In this document: positions 15,585 to 63,105 of the stretch, in pieces | Numbering within the stretch: the first letter of the stretch is position 1 | Layout of the letters: each line of letters starts with the position of its first letter | Source of the DNA: a virus | Direction: 5' to 3' (one strand) | IMG/VR virus record: IMGVR_UViG_3300050343_000110 | Length of the DNA: 64,000 bases | Notes under the pieces: model-generated | Told to the model about the DNA's origin: nothing | Seen by the model: only the letters and a program-made list of their open reading frames with translations | The model's database searches: none | Made by a program: the position numbers and the translations under genes

Positions 15585-16641
15585 AAATCACAAACAGTGG
15601 AAATCAGTTCCAAACGTAGAATACATTTCAAGTGAATGTTATAATAACAACAGCATATTCCAACAAGAACAAGAACTAATCTTCAGTAAAGTTTGGATTC
15701 CTATGTGTCACATCAGTGAGATGTATGAAAAGGGAAACTATAGAACAACGCAAATAGCAGGACAAAATGTTATTGCATATAATACAGGGGAACTTGGTGC
15801 AAGAGCATTTATCAATAATGGGCCTCAGATGCCTTCTGGTAAACTGTGGAATGATGATACCTTTGGTAGAGAACTGCATTGTGAAATAAAACATGGTGGT
15901 ATGGTTTGGGTTACACTAGACCCTAATCCAACACAGAGTGTGGATGAATGGACTGCTGGTGCATTTGATTGTATTGCAGAAGCAATTGACACAGAAGAGA
16001 TGGAAGTATTCCACTACCACAAAGCCATTATAAATACAAACTACAAGTTATGGCACGATACTAACTCTGAGTTCTACCACGACTTTATGCACTACTTTAA
16101 TCGTGTGTCTGGATTCAATGATGAGTATTTTGCTAGAAAAAATATCCCTTTCGACAATGGCCACGTTAATGTTAGTTCATTTACAGTCAACTACGAAGAG
16201 TACGATGGGTTTGAGGATAGAGGCGAACTTAGTTTCCCTAACCTCCCCCCTAATCAATGGTACATGGTTGACTTATTTCCTGGCTTTAACTTTAATCTTA
16301 GAGGGAGTGCTTATAGAAGCGATAGTGTTACGCCTCTGGGCCCGAATGAAGTTCTTATAGAATTTCGTGGATATGGATTAAGAAAAGACACAAAAGAAGA
16401 AAGACAGACTAGAATTAAACATCATAATTCTATCTGGGGCCCGTTTGGTAGAAATCTCCATGAAGATTTGATTGGAGTTGCTGGACAGGGAACGACTATG
16501 CGTGAAGGAACAGAAGCACGAAATATCCTACACGGTAGACATGAGAATGGAACTATCCACGATGAAGTGGGTATGAGACATTACTATGGTGCATGGGGTG
16601 ATATGCTGGGTGTAAATCCAGAACAACCTCTCGCCGCATAA
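15571..16641 (+). CDS. Ring-hydroxylating (Rieske) oxygenase alpha-subunit homolog lacking the Rieske cluster ligands
   Basis: E.ELIFSKVW, NYKLW...EFYH.FMH, LFP, EDL; no CxH...CxxH. Confidence 0.8.
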   Translation: MMAPRNHKQWKSVPNVEYISSECYNNNSIFQQEQELIFSKVWIPMCHISEMYEKGNYRTTQIAGQNVIAYNTGELGARAFINNGPQMPSGKLWNDDTFGRELHCEIKHGGMVWVTLDPNPTQSVDEWTAGAFDCIAEAIDTEEMEVFHYHKAIINTNYKLWHDTNSEFYHDFMHYFNRVSGFNDEYFARKNIPFDNGHVNVSSFTVNYEEYDGFEDRGELSFPNLPPNQWYMVDLFPGFNFNLRGSAYRSDSVTPLGPNEVLIEFRGYGLRKDTKEERQTRIKHHNSIWGPFGRNLHEDLIGVAGQGTTMREGTEARNILHGRHENGTIHDEVGMRHYYGAWGDMLGVNPEQPLAA

Positions 16642-24667: not shown

Positions 24668-24695
24668 AAGCCCTTGATTTACAAGGGCTTTTTTT
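24668..24695 (+). terminator. Terminator hairpin containing an IHF-like site
   Basis: AAGCCCTTG-ATTTA-CAAGGGCTT plus T-run. Confidence 0.75.
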
Positions 24696-24710
24696 ATGCC
24701 AAAAAAGGCC

Positions 24711-24739
24711 TTGACTTGTTATGAAAACATTGGTATAGT
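24711..24739 (+). promoter_or_regulatory. Early sigma70 promoter with TGTTATGAAAACA spacer element
   Basis: TTGACT-17-TATAGT. Confidence 0.8.
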
Positions 24740-24770
24740 ATATGTATAGTCAAGAGAAAGAGAGAAACAA

Positions 24771-25851
24771 ATGACAGAGACAATTTTTATCGGTGCGAAC
24801 AACGGTGGCCTTGAGATTTACAAAGGTGCTGGAAACTTGATTGCTGGAAACGTCCAGACTGCAAAGACTTTCAAATATGTGATGGATACTCATGGTATTG
24901 ATGTTGACGATGACACCTTCTGGTACACAAGCAGCATGGACTTTGCAGATGAAGAAGGGTTCGCCCACTATGACGATGCAAAGATACTTGCAGAAGAAGG
25001 TTTTAAATTAATGGAAATGACAAAGGCGTATTAAAATGAATATTGAGAAAGTTACAAATATGATGTGTGAGTTCGTTACCTATGTTGACGATTTCTATAA
25101 TGAGAAGTCTGGTATCTATCCTATCAAGGGTATGACAGACATGATGGTTATCAAGGCTGTCCAGAAACACGTTGCAAATGTTGGAATGGATTTCTGTGCC
25201 GACAGTGTTGATAGAGAATGGGTAAGGGATATCATCCTTGCTGATAACGATTTGAAATGGGGAGTGTAATTATGGGTTATTTTTACCAAGATTGGAAAGA
25301 GAAAAAGATGTTTGTTGAGAATACAGACGGGTCAGTTCGTGATGAACTTTGGTGAGGCAGAGAAGTCAATGATTCAGAATCTTGAAGATGCTGTCATCAA
25401 TCTCACAGAGGGTGCTTCTGATGAGAAGAGAATGGCGATTGGATACATGGAGTATCTTGCCGACTGCCTGAAAAAAGGTAAACTTGAAGTTAAGTGGAAC
25501 ATTAGTTAGGAGAATATTATGGGATTGTTAGTAAACGTATATAAGACTGAAGGTCGTGATTGTACAAATGGTGGTGTTTCCTCTAAGTGGAACATCAAAG
25601 GACTTTGTTTGATAAATGTGCCTGGGCCCTTTAACCCAAGTGAGGATTATCCTGCCGCACAGTTGGTAAAACAGAGTTTTTATTTTGGTGATAGTGTGAA
25701 GATTATCCCAGAAGAGTGTGAAGGTAAACAGACAATGATGGGTGGTAACTATGCCGCAACATCTGATAGTCGGTTCAGTGACGCCATTGCGGCACGACTT
25801 GGACACAACTTCTACGGTGCTGTTCCTATTCACGATAGGGTTGAATTTTAA
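24771..25851 (+). other. Four small early genes (24771..25034, 25036..25269, ~25272..25509 frameshifted, 25519..25851)
   Basis: Tandem ORFs with RBSs behind an early promoter. Confidence 0.65.
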
Positions 25852-25863
25852 TTCAAAAAGCTA

Positions 25864-25892
25864 TTGACTTGTTATGAAAACAATGGTATTAT
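25864..25892 (+). promoter_or_regulatory. Early sigma70 promoter with the same spacer element
   Basis: TTGACT-TGTTATGAAAACAATGG-TATTAT. Confidence 0.8.
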
Positions 25893-26091
25893 GTAATAGA
25901 AAGATGAGGAGAGATTTGGATGTGACAATATTCTAAGGACAAAAACAGTGCAAGTAGGTTCGCCCATATGAATTGAAAGCTATGTCCACACAGGGTGATA
26001 TGGGGCGCACTAGCTAAAAGACCTGACTAGTGTGACTGACAGTGATGCGACCACATTAAAAGCCAGGCATTCTTTTTTGAGGAGATTTGTT

Positions 26092-27281: not shown

Positions 27282-27359
27282 CTGTCCGTAGCTCAGCTGG
27301 ATCAGAGCAACAGCCTTCTAAGCTGTGGGTCGCAGGTTCGAGTCCTGCCGGACAGGCCA
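27282..27359 (+). tRNA. tRNA-Arg (UCU)
   Basis: Acceptor CTGTCCG/CGGACAG, anticodon arm ACAGC-CTTCTAA-GCTGT, GGTTCGAGT, encoded CCA. Confidence 0.95.
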
Positions 27360-29398: not shown

Positions 29399-29852
29399 AT
29401 GAGTAGAACGCATACACCTCTACTTTCTGAGGTACTAAAGAAAGTGCATAACGCAAAAACTAAGGATAAGAAGATTTCTATCCTAAGAGAGAACGACAGT
29501 GACCCTCTTAGAATGGTTATTAAATCTTCTTTCGACCCCTAACATCGAATGGGTATTCCCAGAAGGTGAAGTTCCTTACAAAAAGAACGATGTTCCAGAG
29601 GGAACAGAACATACTGTTCTGAGAAAAGAATGCAGAAAACTGTTTAGATTCATCAAAGGGGGTGACAATACCATACCACAGTTTCGCAAAGAAAATCTTT
29701 TCATTCAAATGTTGGAAGGGTTACACGAATCTGAGGCTCAACTTATTATTGATGCCAAGGATAAAAAACTGCATCAGGTTTACAAAGGACTATCTGATAA
29801 TGTAGTTAAAGAAGCATTTGGTTGGAATGACCAATATATCAAGGAAACCTAA
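29399..29852 (+). CDS. Conserved T4-like hypothetical protein (frameshifted)
   Basis: PEG.VPY, FIQMLEGLH..EA motifs. Confidence 0.65.
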
Positions 29853-29853
29853 T

Positions 29854-30364
29854 ATGAAAGAAAATTATCAAAATTGTTTGGAGATTATTCTCCATCACGA
29901 AGGCGGTTATGTAAATCATCCAAAAGACCCCTGGCGGCGAAACTAACCTTGGTGTAACCAAAAGGGTTTATGAAGAATGGGGTGGAACTAAAGAGATGAA
30001 AGATTTAGAAGTCTCTGATGTTGCTCCTATCTATGAGAAAAACTATTGGGGGCGACTAAAATGTGACGATATCCCATCTGGGCTTGACCTCTGCGTATTC
30101 GATTTCGGAGTAAACGCTGGTACAGGACGTAGTGCAAAGTATTTGCAGACAATGATTGGAACAGTTGCAGATGGTGGCATCGGCCCAAATACACTAAGAA
30201 CACTTGGTGAGTATATTGATGAACATGGTCTTGAAACAACTATTAAGAACTTTCAAGAAGCCCGTCAGTCATACTATGAGAAACTATCTACCTTTGAGAC
30301 ATTCGGTAGAGGGTGGACTCGTAGGGTTCTAGAAACTACATCTTCTGCTCTAAAAATGTCTTGA
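29854..30364 (+). CDS. Glycoside hydrolase family 108 lysozyme (frameshift near 29930)
   Basis: HEGGYVNHPKDP-GGETNLGVT, FDFGVNAG, DGGIGP.T, FGRGW..R. Confidence 0.88.
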
Positions 30365-30389
30365 CAAAACGCCCAGTTTTTAGTATTAT
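30361..30389 (+). promoter_or_regulatory. sigma70 promoter of candidate sRNA
   Basis: TTGACA-17-TATTAT. Confidence 0.7.
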
Positions 30390-30394
30390 ATAAC

Positions 30395-30480
30395 AGTTGG
30401 GGGTTGTTGAACTCTTCTCTCTCAAACTCTCTCACTCCCCCCAACATAGAAATCCCCTGAGAAATCAGGGGATTTTTTTT
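30395..30480 (+). ncRNA. Candidate ~85-nt sRNA with CU-rich loop
   Basis: Own promoter, stem GTTGGGGG/CCCCCAAC, pyrimidine loop, 11-bp GAAA-capped terminator with T-run, no ORF. Confidence 0.65.
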
Positions 30481-30490
30481 GATTTTTCTC

Positions 30491-30519
30491 TTGACATTTG
30501 TTATTAAAGCAAGTATAAT
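30491..30519 (+). promoter_or_regulatory. Early promoter with operator variant
   Basis: TTGACA-17-TATAAT, spacer contains TGTTATTAAAGCA. Confidence 0.8.
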
Positions 30520-30552: not shown

Positions 30553-30816
30553 ATGATTAAAAATTTGAATATACCAGAAACTTGTGGATGGCTGGGAATG
30601 ATTCTCATCCACGGAGCAACTGCTCCAACATCAATCTCTGTTCTAATGGGATGGTCAACTAACTTGCCACCATTGAACTTCATACTATTAGTATGGTTAG
30701 GATTGTTCTTGTTTCTGGTTAGAGCGATATACGCTAAAGATACTTTGTACATTGTATCTAATGCGATTGGATTTGCCTTGAATACCTTGTTGTTAAGTTT
30801 GATTGCATTTAATTAA
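30553..30816 (+). CDS. 3-TM membrane protein, SemiSWEET/PQ-loop-like
   Basis: GWLG..L...A..P helix 1; D.LYIVSN helix 3. Confidence 0.5.
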   Translation: MIKNLNIPETCGWLGMILIHGATAPTSISVLMGWSTNLPPLNFILLVWLGLFLFLVRAIYAKDTLYIVSNAIGFALNTLLLSLIAFN

Positions 30817-30822
30817 AAAGAC

Positions 30823-30877
30823 TTGACTTGTTATGAAAACAATGGTATGATCTATATAGAAAGTGAGAAGTGATTCG
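30823..30877 (+). promoter_or_regulatory. Early promoter with operator and TGATTCG
   Basis: TTGACT-TGTTATGAAAACAATGG-TATGAT; motif at 30871. Confidence 0.8.
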
Positions 30878-37137: not shown

Positions 37138-37495
37138 TGGGAGTGCTTTGGCTGCGCCAGAGGACTATAATACACCAGAACCAGAAACACCACCTCAAGT
37201 GTTTCGTTCAGACAAACCAGTAACTTGTACTACTGATTCATATGATGAAGTAAAGCAAAACTTTCTAGAATCACATGGTGAAGTTGGTTTTATGAGATAC
37301 ATAAGTGATAGTAAAACTGCTATTGAAATAATTGGTAATGTAGACACAGGAACTATTACTATCTTAGAATTTATACCATCAAATAAATATACTTGTTTTA
37401 TTTCTGTTGGTAGAGGATTAGAGGTAAACAGTAATATTTTTGATAAGGCAAAACAAGGTATTGAAACTAACTTACTTAAATCTATTGACTTGTAA
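37091..37495 (+). CDS. Exported hypothetical protein
   Basis: Signal peptide; KPV.C ... TC....G. Confidence 0.6.
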   Translation: MKSWKKALTLSALLFSGSALAAPEDYNTPEPETPPQVFRSDKPVTCTTDSYDEVKQNFLESHGEVGFMRYISDSKTAIEIIGNVDTGTITILEFIPSNKYTCFISVGRGLEVNSNIFDKAKQGIETNLLKSIDL

Positions 37496-37515
37496 ACACC
37501 ACTATGGTATAAATA
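37485..37515 (+). promoter_or_regulatory. Overlapping sigma70 and T4 late promoters for tmRNA
   Basis: TTGACT-17-TATAAA with TATAAATA at 37508. Confidence 0.7.
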
Positions 37516-37519
37516 TAGT

Positions 37520-37877
37520 ACAGTTTGTTGATACAATCTGAAAGCTAGACAGGACTTGGGGGCAGTACCCAACGCCTCCACCATAATTACTTGAGGACAA
37601 TATGTTTGATAGACTAACAGAGTTTTTTATAAAACTGTTTAAGATACAAGAAAAGACACCAGTAAGATATCTATCTGGTGTTGGTAAATCAAGTAATTAT
37701 GATGGGGGCGAACTAGGATCGACTGATGGTAATAGGAAAGAGTAGAGCTGTGGGATGGATGCCTAATAATCCAAAAAAACTAAACGCAAACGATAACTTT
37801 GCACCTCAAGATTTTGCTCTAGCAGCATAATCGGATAGGGTTTCGGTAGGTTTCCTAGTAACAGAATAACCTACCAC
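37520..37877 (+). ncRNA. ssrA: Circularly permuted two-piece tmRNA (alphaproteobacterial type)
   Basis: Acceptor piece with T-arm TTGGG-GGCAGTA-CCCAA and CGCCTCCACCA (ends 37583); coding piece GGGGGCG..GGATCGAC from 37704 with G3-U70; tag ANDNFAPQDFALAA* at 37786..37830. Confidence 0.93.
37602..37745 (+). CDS. 47-aa ORF starting inside the tmRNA intervening segment
   Basis: GAGGA RBS; MFDRLTEFFIKLFKIQEKTPVRYLSGVGKSSNYDGGELGSTDGNRKE. Confidence 0.45.
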   Translation: MFDRLTEFFIKLFKIQEKTPVRYLSGVGKSSNYDGGELGSTDGNRKE

Positions 37878-37894: not shown

Positions 37895-38662
37895 ATGATG
37901 AAAGAATTTATATTTGTAATTACAATGTGGGGAATCGATGGTTCTGGTACAGAGAATTATATAGGACAGATTGCAATGCAACAGCCGTTCTCAGAAACAC
38001 AGTGCGAAAGACTTATGGATGATGGTATGTGGAAATCTGATTACGAGAACGAACATTACTTTATGAAGGGCCATTGCTTCCCGGCAGAATGTTCTGGTAA
38101 AGAGCAATGTACAGAGTAACAGGATATTTTAAGGAACAGAAGGTAGTTCAGTATTTTACTGATGTATATGACGCTATTGATTTCAAAGATGTTGTTGATG
38201 CACACTACCCTTTAAAGGTAACATTTGAAAAAGGAGTTTATCCAGTGAGAAGTTTTATTGTAGATAGTTGGAATGGTGTAATGAATATGGATAGAAATCC
38301 ATTGAGACATATTCCAGATTTGAATGTGAGACACATGGTACTACAAGTGCTTGCATGGATGTGGTGTATTGTGTTTAGTATGTGGATTGGTAGTTTTTGG
38401 ATTATGGGTATCAGTATGATTGCTCATGCACTATTACTCGCCGCAATAGTTATTACAGTCGCAACCTTTGAAACTGCAAAACGAGCCCCACAGTATTTTG
38501 GTGGTTACGGCAGAGGCGCTGGTGGTGAGCATGAATAAGATTAAACAGTTTTGGTATGAGACTGATAGCATTGAAATGGTTCTCTTTGCAACTATATGGA
38601 GTCTGTTTGGTTACGGTGCATATGTAGTAATACTTGAACTAGTAGATAGGGTGATGCCTTAA
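37895..38662 (+). other. Small exported/membrane hypothetical genes
   Basis: ORFs 37895..38119, 38107..38538, ~38531..38662. Confidence 0.55.
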
Positions 38663-54957: not shown

Positions 54958-55430
54958 ATGACGAAATTTGAGAAAGAAATGTTTACTTGGGATGGTATGT
55001 ATCTCATGTACAAGGGTGACTTTGCTGGTGCCCAGATGATGATGGATGTATGTCCAGATGCCCATCCTAGTTGGGAAGGTAAGTTGAAGCCTGCGTTTGT
55101 CGCTCGGTTCAAGTATCGTAAACCCTACAAGACTTGGATTAACTTTCTATGTAAACACGCTACCGTTGAGGAATACATGGACTTGGCGTGGAAAACTAGT
55201 CCACTAGATGCAATGCGAACACTTGGTTATGAGGGAGCCTAATTATGGATTACATTACACAAATTCAAAAAGAGTATATTTACTTCACTGATATGTTGAA
55301 GTCTATTGAGAAGATTAAAAAGAAAACGCCAGGCAATGGTTTTGCAAAAATGAAATGCAAAGAACGTATTGCAGAACTGGAAAAGATTTTCGATGAGATT
55401 GACTATGCTGCACAGGTAACATACGACTAA
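54958..55430 (+). other. Two small early genes
   Basis: 54958..55242 (FVARFKY motif), 55245..55430. Confidence 0.6.
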
Positions 55431-56593: not shown

Positions 56594-56645
56594 CATTTGT
56601 TATGAAAACAGGTATGATCATAGGGTAAGTGAGAGAGGTGATTCG
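56590..56645 (+). promoter_or_regulatory. Early promoter with operator and TGATTCG
   Basis: TTGACA-17-TATGAT; TGTTATGAAAACA at 56598; motif at 56639. Confidence 0.8.
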
Positions 56646-57454
56646 CTATGTTTAATAATGTTGGAAATCCAATTGAGGCCTTTGCAGTTGTGAAGGTTGA
56701 ACCAAATAAAACCCCAGAGGTAGTTTCAGAACACCAGTGCATAGGTAATGCCTGTGAGGAACAGATGGTTCTGAATGAGATGGCAGAGGGTACAGAAGTT
56801 ACCTTTGTTGTCAAAGAGACTCATGGTTGTATGATTGAAACTGTTTAAGGAGAGAGAAATGTTAAATATTATTGGAATGGTTATGATGATTGTCGGTGTG
56901 TTGATGATGGCTGGAAGTGCTGGAGACTGTGACGGCAAATGCATGGAGTATGCAAACACTATGGGTGAGATGGCAACAATGTTGATTTTGGGGTTGACAA
57001 TCGCAGCGATTGGTGGTATTATAGTATATAATGAGAATAAGATATAGGAGAGAGATGTGAGAAAATATATAAAGATTGGCACTAAGTGTGATACTAAGTT
57101 TGGACTGTCTAAAGTGACAGGGATTGAAATGTGTGAGACTGAGGGTGCAAAGGAAGGAATTCCTATGGAAAAGGTTTTCCTATCAGACAAAAACAGATGT
57201 GTCTTTGACTTTGAAAATGGACACTGGCAATATGGATATCAAGTGGAGGCTCAAAATGCTTGAGATTTTAGGTGCGTTGATTATTGTTAATATAGTTTTG
57301 GGTGTATTACTATGACACAAATACAACTATTAGAAAAAAGGATAGATGCAGTTGCAAAGACGCTGCAATATCCACATCTTTCAGACTGGGCTGTTCAGTA
57401 TTGGAACAACGTATTGGATAGTCTGGTTATGAAGTTACCGAAAGATAAACTAAA

Positions 57455-63001: not shown

Positions 63002-63073
63002 TAAGCCATTGATTTTACTAGCGAATTTAATGCCAAATTAGGCCTTGACTTGCTCTGAGAACAATGGTATAAT
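63002..63073 (+). promoter_or_regulatory. IHF-like site plus early promoter with operator variant
   Basis: TAAGCCATTGATT; TTGACT-TGCTCTGAGAACAATGG-TATAAT. Confidence 0.78.
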
Positions 63074-63105
63074 AGCTATATAATCAGAGAGTAAGGAGAG
63101 TTCAC

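Follow-up and report, generated by a model that had tools for sequence, protein, structure and literature searches.

The question raised by this locus is whether positions 30361-30480 of a viral DNA, the 64,000-nucleotide IMG/VR record IMGVR_UViG_3300050343_000110 (this whole stretch is hereafter called the window), constitute a small RNA (sRNA) gene, and with what the CU-rich loop of such an RNA would interact. To our knowledge, regulatory RNAs of lytic phages are almost unexplored, and none has been described for the abundant marine phages of the streamlined bacteria OM43 and SAR11.

Organization of the sRNA Locus

A sigma-70-type early promoter is located at 30361-30389 on the plus strand, where a -35 element (TTGACA, 30361-30366) and a -10 element (TATTAT, 30384-30389) are separated by a 17-nt spacer, and 11 of the 12 positions match the consensus. 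The hairpin begins six bases past the -10 element, and the sRNA transcript probably starts at 30396 or within 1-2 nt of this position. Folding with RNAfold, together with alignment to the family model R1 and covariation as described below, defined a closing stem of 8 bp between a 5′ arm at 30396-30403 and a 3′ arm at 30438-30445, both on the plus strand. This stable stem carries a single-stranded loop of 34 nt (30404-30437, plus strand), which was delineated by RNAfold and by the invariant columns of the alignments A1 and A4. The loop contains no G and is ~90% pyrimidine, and its CU-rich part (30412-30437) holds the invariant core of the family, here (CU)3C-AAA-CUC. After a gap of two bases, the 3′ arm is followed by an intrinsic terminator (30448-30480, plus strand) with a 13-pair stem (30448-30477), a 4-nt loop and eight T/U residues ending at 30480. 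The promoter, the 8-bp stem, the 34-nt loop and the strong terminator were thus all present where a sequence-only reading of the window had put them. The predicted fold of the 89-nt transcript had an energy of -35 kcal/mol (z = -4.6 against dinucleotide shuffles), which was equalled by none of 200 shuffles. The layout, in which a putative seed is followed by an A/U-rich spacer and a terminator with a U-tail, is compatible with that of an Hfq-type trans-acting sRNA.

The sole ORF over the element is a 36-codon frame with a TTG start (30397-30507), which crosses the terminator and enters the next promoter, and this frame was not kept in relatives. Neither ARAGORN nor Rfam gave the element a tRNA or tmRNA identity; the only tRNA of the window, a tRNA-Arg(UCU), lies at 27282, and its only tmRNA, which is of the permuted alpha type, lies at 37481-37875. 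The sRNA adds an RNA to the translation-related genes of the window phage (bS21, tmRNA and tRNA). The downstream neighbour, a conserved gene for a membrane protein of 87 amino acids (aa) (30553-30816, plus strand), has its own promoter at 30491-30519 that matches the consensus at 12 of 12 positions, indicating that the sRNA element is a separate transcription unit. The locus had been described as an RNA gene without an ORF, and our analysis agrees that it is an independent RNA gene, neither a protein gene nor a cis leader of the next ORF. Its description as stand-alone held for this window, but many relatives have the hairpin as the 5′ portion of a tRNA-Gly transcript.

The upstream neighbour is a GH108-type lysozyme gene (29855-30364, plus strand), as recognized from the annotation of phage Melnitz and by alignment with Melnitz and contig L010. 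In the window, this lysozyme-like gene has a +1 frameshift caused by one extra T at 29932 relative to Melnitz and to L010, which is near-identical to the window; the extra T reflects an assembly error or else a genuine disruption.

A Homologous Element in Phage Melnitz

The sRNA region of the window was 79% identical in its flanks to Methylophilales phage Melnitz, a T4-like marine myophage (Kyanoviridae) of the OM43 clade. In Melnitz (MZ577097), an element at 38546-38600 lies in the same slot, flanked by the GH108 gene and the gene for the 87-aa membrane protein, and has the same plan of promoter, CU-loop hairpin and terminator as the window element. On the other hand, it differs from the latter in having a 14-15-bp stem of unrelated sequence, a 25-nt loop and a different terminator. 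The Melnitz element is predicted to be a true homologue of the window element.

In the Melnitz annotation, the element is covered by a 59-codon coding sequence (CDS) for a hypothetical protein (MelnitzEXVC044M_66, gene 66; QZI94798.1; 38547-38726), which extends over the sRNA hairpin and its terminator as well as the promoter of the following gene. Gene 66 is very likely a mis-annotation of the RNA element as a protein, and the present analysis corrects this annotated "hypothetical protein". A small RNA is not mentioned in the Melnitz paper (PMC9004378).

An RNA Family with a Covarying Stem and a Nearly Invariant Loop

Relatives of the element were gathered in two ways, via the 87-aa gene and via the loop pattern. 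More than 20 different stems were found around a nearly invariant loop with the consensus CC(UC)4-AA-(CU)4C. In the alignments A1 and A4, the loop core (CU)3C-A(A)A-CUC was nearly invariant while the stems varied, and the invariant core columns of both alignments were present in the row of the window. A covariance model, R1, was built from eight members and detected single copies on each of ~38 Melnitz-like marine viral contigs. In Melnitz, one copy with 52 bits was obtained when the first 100 kb were scanned and the last 41.5 kb left out. In the window, R1 gave one copy (30396-30445), which aligned from end to end with a weak score of 18.9 bits (E = 0.1-0.26); this is the weakest and most divergent member, the others scoring 24-77 bits.

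The pairs of the closing stem covary across 26 distinct sequences. In A4, a model-guided alignment of 27 sequences that was fitted to R1, which favours the structure (the stems are also readable from independent folds), 93.5% of the cells were paired, as compared with 37-61% in slid controls. Compensatory changes on both sides were found in 15 of 15 pairs of this alignment, and its 77 double-change cells, against 15.6 in shuffles, were reached by none of 500 shuffles. An equivalent promoter is found at the same distance in every member, with the hairpin starting ~6 nt past the -10 element, and the hairpin is followed by a terminator or by a tRNA plus a terminator, an arrangement that the window fits. 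The terminators of stand-alone relatives are non-homologous and occupy the same place. Judged by family conservation and covariation, the predicted hairpin is far beyond chance, and the window element is, as far as comparative sequence analysis can predict, a hitherto undescribed sRNA gene of Melnitz-type marine phages. Conservation of the loop while the stem covaries supports the loop as the presumed functional part of the RNA.

G-U pairs are common and U-G pairs rare in the family stem; since G-U is frequent on the plus strand only, the structure resides in the plus-strand RNA, not in DNA. This one-sidedness argues against a DNA-level signal, such as a cruciform or the H-DNA mirror repeat that the CT tract could provide. 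A small protein gene, as annotated over the Melnitz element, could be seen in the ATG that begins several stems; however, the annotated frame extends across both the terminator and the next promoter, relatives share neither its start codon nor its frame and length (an ATG is missing in the window and contig L026), and what the covariation preserves is pairing, not codons. We regard the protein and DNA readings, taken together, as scarcely credible.

Distribution of the Family

R1 matched none of the complete genomes of the pelagimyophages HTVC008M and Mosig, the marine virus AG-345-L05 and the cyanophages S-T4 and P-HM2. When 185,579 prokaryote species genomes were scanned for exact copies of the 18-nt loop core, 50 scattered matches were obtained, none of which carried a Methylophilaceae or Pelagibacterales label, indicating that these hosts have neither the sRNA nor a long perfect target. 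Rfam searches returned nothing at the gathering score for the whole window, and a permissive scan of the element to E = 10 gave no matching family. The lack of R1 matches in the tested phages, the scattered nature of the genome matches and the lack of an Rfam family together indicate that the family appears to be specific to Melnitz-like phages. A literature search found no description of this RNA.

As a separate observation, metagenome-assembled genomes (MAGs) of Planctomycetota contain sRNA-like units in which a hairpin bearing the same loop motif is followed by a terminator, and also long tandem CUCUCUCAA tracts followed by a terminator. These units and tracts are located at L207:2842-2906, L221:4465-4512, L235:3023-3069, L246:4346-4392, L214:560-830 and on the minus strand of L249 near 2276. 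The look-alikes matched no Rfam family and may be an independent class of CU-repeat RNA.

Association of the Hairpin with tRNA Genes

In at least 10 stem lineages, the hairpin is located 3-11 nt 5′ of a tRNA-Gly(UCC) or tRNA-like gene within one promoter-terminator unit, the single terminator of which lies 3′ of the tRNA or tRNA-like gene. Specifically, the hairpin is 5-11 nt 5′ of tRNA-Gly(UCC) in L002-L009, L013, L014, L130, L137, L162, L180 and L085, and 3-5 nt 5′ of a non-canonical tRNA-like gene in other lineages (L174:3985-4056 on the minus strand, L259:1563-1640, L198, L107 and L199). ARAGORN did not call the tRNA-like gene, for which the Rfam tRNA model gave 44 bits in L174. It seems to have an unusual anticodon loop (around UUCCCGA) and perhaps a 6-bp anticodon stem. 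At least five lineages have no tRNA and are stand-alone (the window with L010 and L173; Melnitz; L026 with L123; L164 with L196; and L146), and they retain the promoter, the hairpin, the loop core and a dedicated terminator. Retention of the hairpin with or without a tRNA argues for a function of its own.

These arrangements bear on two cis-acting readings. The first holds that the element is a 5′ leader that stabilises the tRNA-Gly(UCC) precursor or guides its processing, and that the window copy is a relic with little function after loss of the tRNA. The position of the hairpin in the tRNA-containing lineages and the state of the window copy, which at 18.9 bits is the most degenerate of the family, would agree with such a leader; however, the stand-alone lineages have kept all parts of the unit other than the tRNA, a processing signal needs no invariant loop sequence of 12-20 nt, and the complementary leader of contig G001 described below would be left unexplained. 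We therefore consider this reading improbable. The second supposes a Nus-factor site or another element acting on RNA polymerase, in which the loop, whose core shows a loose resemblance to BoxA (CUCUUUAACAA-like), would modify the elongation complex. A place directly 3′ of a promoter and 5′ of tRNA genes would suit this role, but the hairpin is immediately followed by a strong terminator, the next gene is served by a 12/12 promoter of its own and none of the Rfam models matches, all of which make it very improbable.

Small RNAs derived from tRNA transcripts have precedents in the stable RNAs C and D of phage T4, which are encoded in its tRNA cluster, and in tRNA-spacer sRNAs such as 3′ETS-leuZ. 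The family resembles these in that a small non-tRNA RNA would come from a tRNA transcript, presumably released by tRNA processing enzymes. It differs from T4 RNAs C and D, the function and sequences of which are unrelated or unknown, in being located 5′ of the tRNA and in occurring also as a stand-alone unit.

Complementarity of the Loop to Leaders of the Window and Melnitz

The sequence-only reading had cited matches between the loop and GA-rich leaders of the window as targets, with the caution that low complexity makes chance matches plausible. We confirmed the complements in the window, which are 10 nt long at 56628 and 9 nt long at 56850 and 44359. Yet they were at chance level, because 29, 52 and 82 of 300 composition-matched shuffled loops had at least as many 8-, 9- and 10-nt complements, respectively, in the window. 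Duplex energies between the loop and 103 predicted leaders of the window were also no better than those of shuffled loops; the mean was worse than that of 94 of 100 shuffles, and the top-5 score was reached by 21 of 100. Over the whole window, the strongest duplex other than the self-match had -29.3 kcal/mol (at 261), an energy that 10 of 60 shuffles reached. Pairing in the window was thus no better than that of shuffled controls, so that the cited matches are not supported as targets, in line with the caution. In Melnitz with its own loop, complementary 8- to 10-mers were likewise not enriched.

For a conserved-pairing test, 43 orthologous leader pairs of the window and Melnitz were compared, each phage with its own loop. 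The best conserved pairings were obtained for the window genes at 54958, 63106 and 13513; among 100 shuffles, 2 attained the top-3 score and 8 the best score. This conserved-leader signal is weak and seems mostly to reflect GAGAG-type Shine-Dalgarno sequences in some early leaders.

A Candidate Target in Relatives

Besides the sRNAs, R1 matched the antisense of a leader in contig L170. Leaders of this type are ~25 nt long, consist of GA repeats around a central UU and end in GAGG, and they are located 4-5 nt before the AUG of a gene for a secreted, signal-peptide protein of 138-140 aa. The leader was identical in five diverged versions of the gene, in which the flanking coding and spacer sequences differ, although this invariance comes partly from the search design because the searches demanded an exact match. 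The target gene sits in an operon of secreted proteins 3′ of a gp32-like SSB gene, and in L255 this operon starts at a T4-late-type TATAAATA. Past the gp32-like gene, the late operon encodes signal-peptide proteins, five or six in number (L255:4927-8217; L170:1079-4017), and two of its ribosome-binding sites are GA repeats; in G001, a GA-repeat ribosome-binding site of 10-11 nt likewise precedes the operon's first gene. Pfam gave no match for the target protein or its operon neighbours. The leaders of more distant orthologues (52-62% identity) are ordinary, and R1 found no sRNA on the contigs that carry them.

Contig G001 (51.8 kb) is the single case of sRNA and target on the same contig. Its sRNA (16482-16539, 73 bits) is accompanied by a promoter, a tRNA-like gene and a terminator, and its leader is located at 29625-29654. 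The loop of this sRNA contains 20 consecutive bases that form a perfect complement to the leader, and the complementarity covers the Shine-Dalgarno sequence and ends 5 nt before the AUG. The energy of this loop-leader duplex was -43.6 kcal/mol, while the best duplexes of shuffled loops in 64 kb averaged -27.1 kcal/mol (sd 2.4). The earlier proposal of a trans-acting sRNA directed at the phage's own GA leaders thus finds its counterpart in the 20-nt perfect complement of G001, but not in the window or Melnitz, where the target gene is absent; in fact, tblastn of the G001 target protein gave no match in either of them. The sRNA is far more widespread than its one clear target. In addition, the antisense of the L170 leader matched the L164-type sRNA at 29 of 30 nt, covering the loop plus the first nine bases of the 3′ arm, which suggests a shared origin of leader and sRNA.

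Proposed Action of the sRNA

Given these results, we hold with moderate confidence that the element encodes a trans-acting antisense sRNA, made early, whose loop would block GA-repeat ribosome-binding sites. In this scheme, 30361-30480 of the window would be transcribed early in infection from a host-type promoter into a small RNA of ~85-90 nt. The hairpin would lie at the 5′ end of the RNA, the only job of its stem being to display the long unpaired CU-repeat loop, and a short spacer plus the intrinsic terminator would complete the molecule. The loop would then pair in trans with GA-repeat leaders containing the Shine-Dalgarno sequence and block ribosome access, and the pairing might also trigger cleavage. 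Expression of the RNA, its pairing with ensuing translational repression, and the same action by the window copy are what we infer from the sequences. Several findings count against the antisense reading: a closed loop offers no room for a complete 20-bp duplex unless the structure rearranges, pairing with leaders of the window was no better than that of shuffled loops, complementary 8- to 10-mers were not enriched in Melnitz, neither phage has the target gene, and the window copy is the weakest match to the family model.

A wider version of the antisense reading, which we put forward as possible though unlikely, would make the RNA a timing switch of lytic T4-like phages, in which the early sRNA silences the GA-repeat sites of the late operon of secreted proteins. 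The sRNA gene may in this case stem from inverted duplication of the target leader, and in phages without the operon, such as the window phage and Melnitz, the loop would act on host OM43 mRNAs as a shut-off RNA. Inverted duplication of a target is a proposed route for the birth of plant microRNA genes.

The main rival to the antisense reading is a protein decoy, the other rivals being less likely. Rho binds YC dinucleotides, and ribosomal protein S1 binds pyrimidine-rich RNA; an unpaired, G-free, YC-rich loop might therefore titrate Rho (through its primary site), S1 or a cold-shock protein and so alter early termination or translation. The composition of the loop and its display on a stable stem would serve such a decoy, the window and Melnitz gave no convincing RNA target, and the CU tracts and same-loop hairpins with terminators in Planctomycetota suggest that the motif is a general ligand. 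However, the exact loop sequence is conserved, including the central AA and its register, which exceeds the needs of a composition-driven binder. Moreover, a decoy leaves the 20-nt perfect complement in G001 unexplained, and the loop is short for a Rho hexamer. We consider the decoy rather unlikely and continue to prefer antisense pairing.

Relation to Known Pyrimidine-Rich sRNAs

The alphaproteobacterial sRNAs AbcR1/2, cuckoo, CcsR and NfeR1 use pyrimidine-rich hairpin loops to pair with purine-rich ribosome-binding sites; sRNAs of the AbcR/cuckoo group are chromosomal and have two to four hairpins and a CCUCC-type motif. The window sRNA would resemble this group in its proposed anti-Shine-Dalgarno mode, while it is phage-encoded and has one hairpin with a (CU)n loop without CCUCC. 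Membership in the AbcR/cuckoo group (including CcsR and NfeR1) was rejected on the basis of no match to its Rfam models to E = 10, a single seed hairpin and no CCUCC; the comparison drawn earlier with AbcR and cuckoo does not extend to family membership. The absence of a model match, the single hairpin, the lack of CCUCC and the phage location together indicate a family that is new but mechanistically of a known kind. A further comparison is provided by Helicobacter RepG and by the C-rich loops of RsaE, RoxS and RNAIII, where C/U-rich loops recognize simple purine repeats of mRNA leaders. Such targeting parallels that of the GA-repeat leader of G001, whereas organisms, sequences and architectures differ, and homology is not expected.

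The analysis yields an RNA family with textbook covariation, a covariance model and, in a relative of the window phage, a testable sRNA-target pair. The Melnitz-OM43 system is cultivable, so that the prediction is directly testable.

Other Features of the Window

Early promoter cassettes of 60 nt were observed in the window at 24692-24752, 25845-25905, 30804-30864, 63026-63086 and 37478-37510. They consist of TTGACTTGTTATGAAAACAATGGTAT followed by a -10 element, and several of them drive short GA-rich leaders. In addition, a GUGAUUCG(C) motif recurs just 5′ of start codons or past stop codons, at 30870 and 56639 in the window and in L036, L050-L059 and L068. At least the GGUGAU part of this motif is complementary to AUCACC of the 3′ end of 16S rRNA, and the motif is therefore probably an upstream-shifted Shine-Dalgarno sequence.
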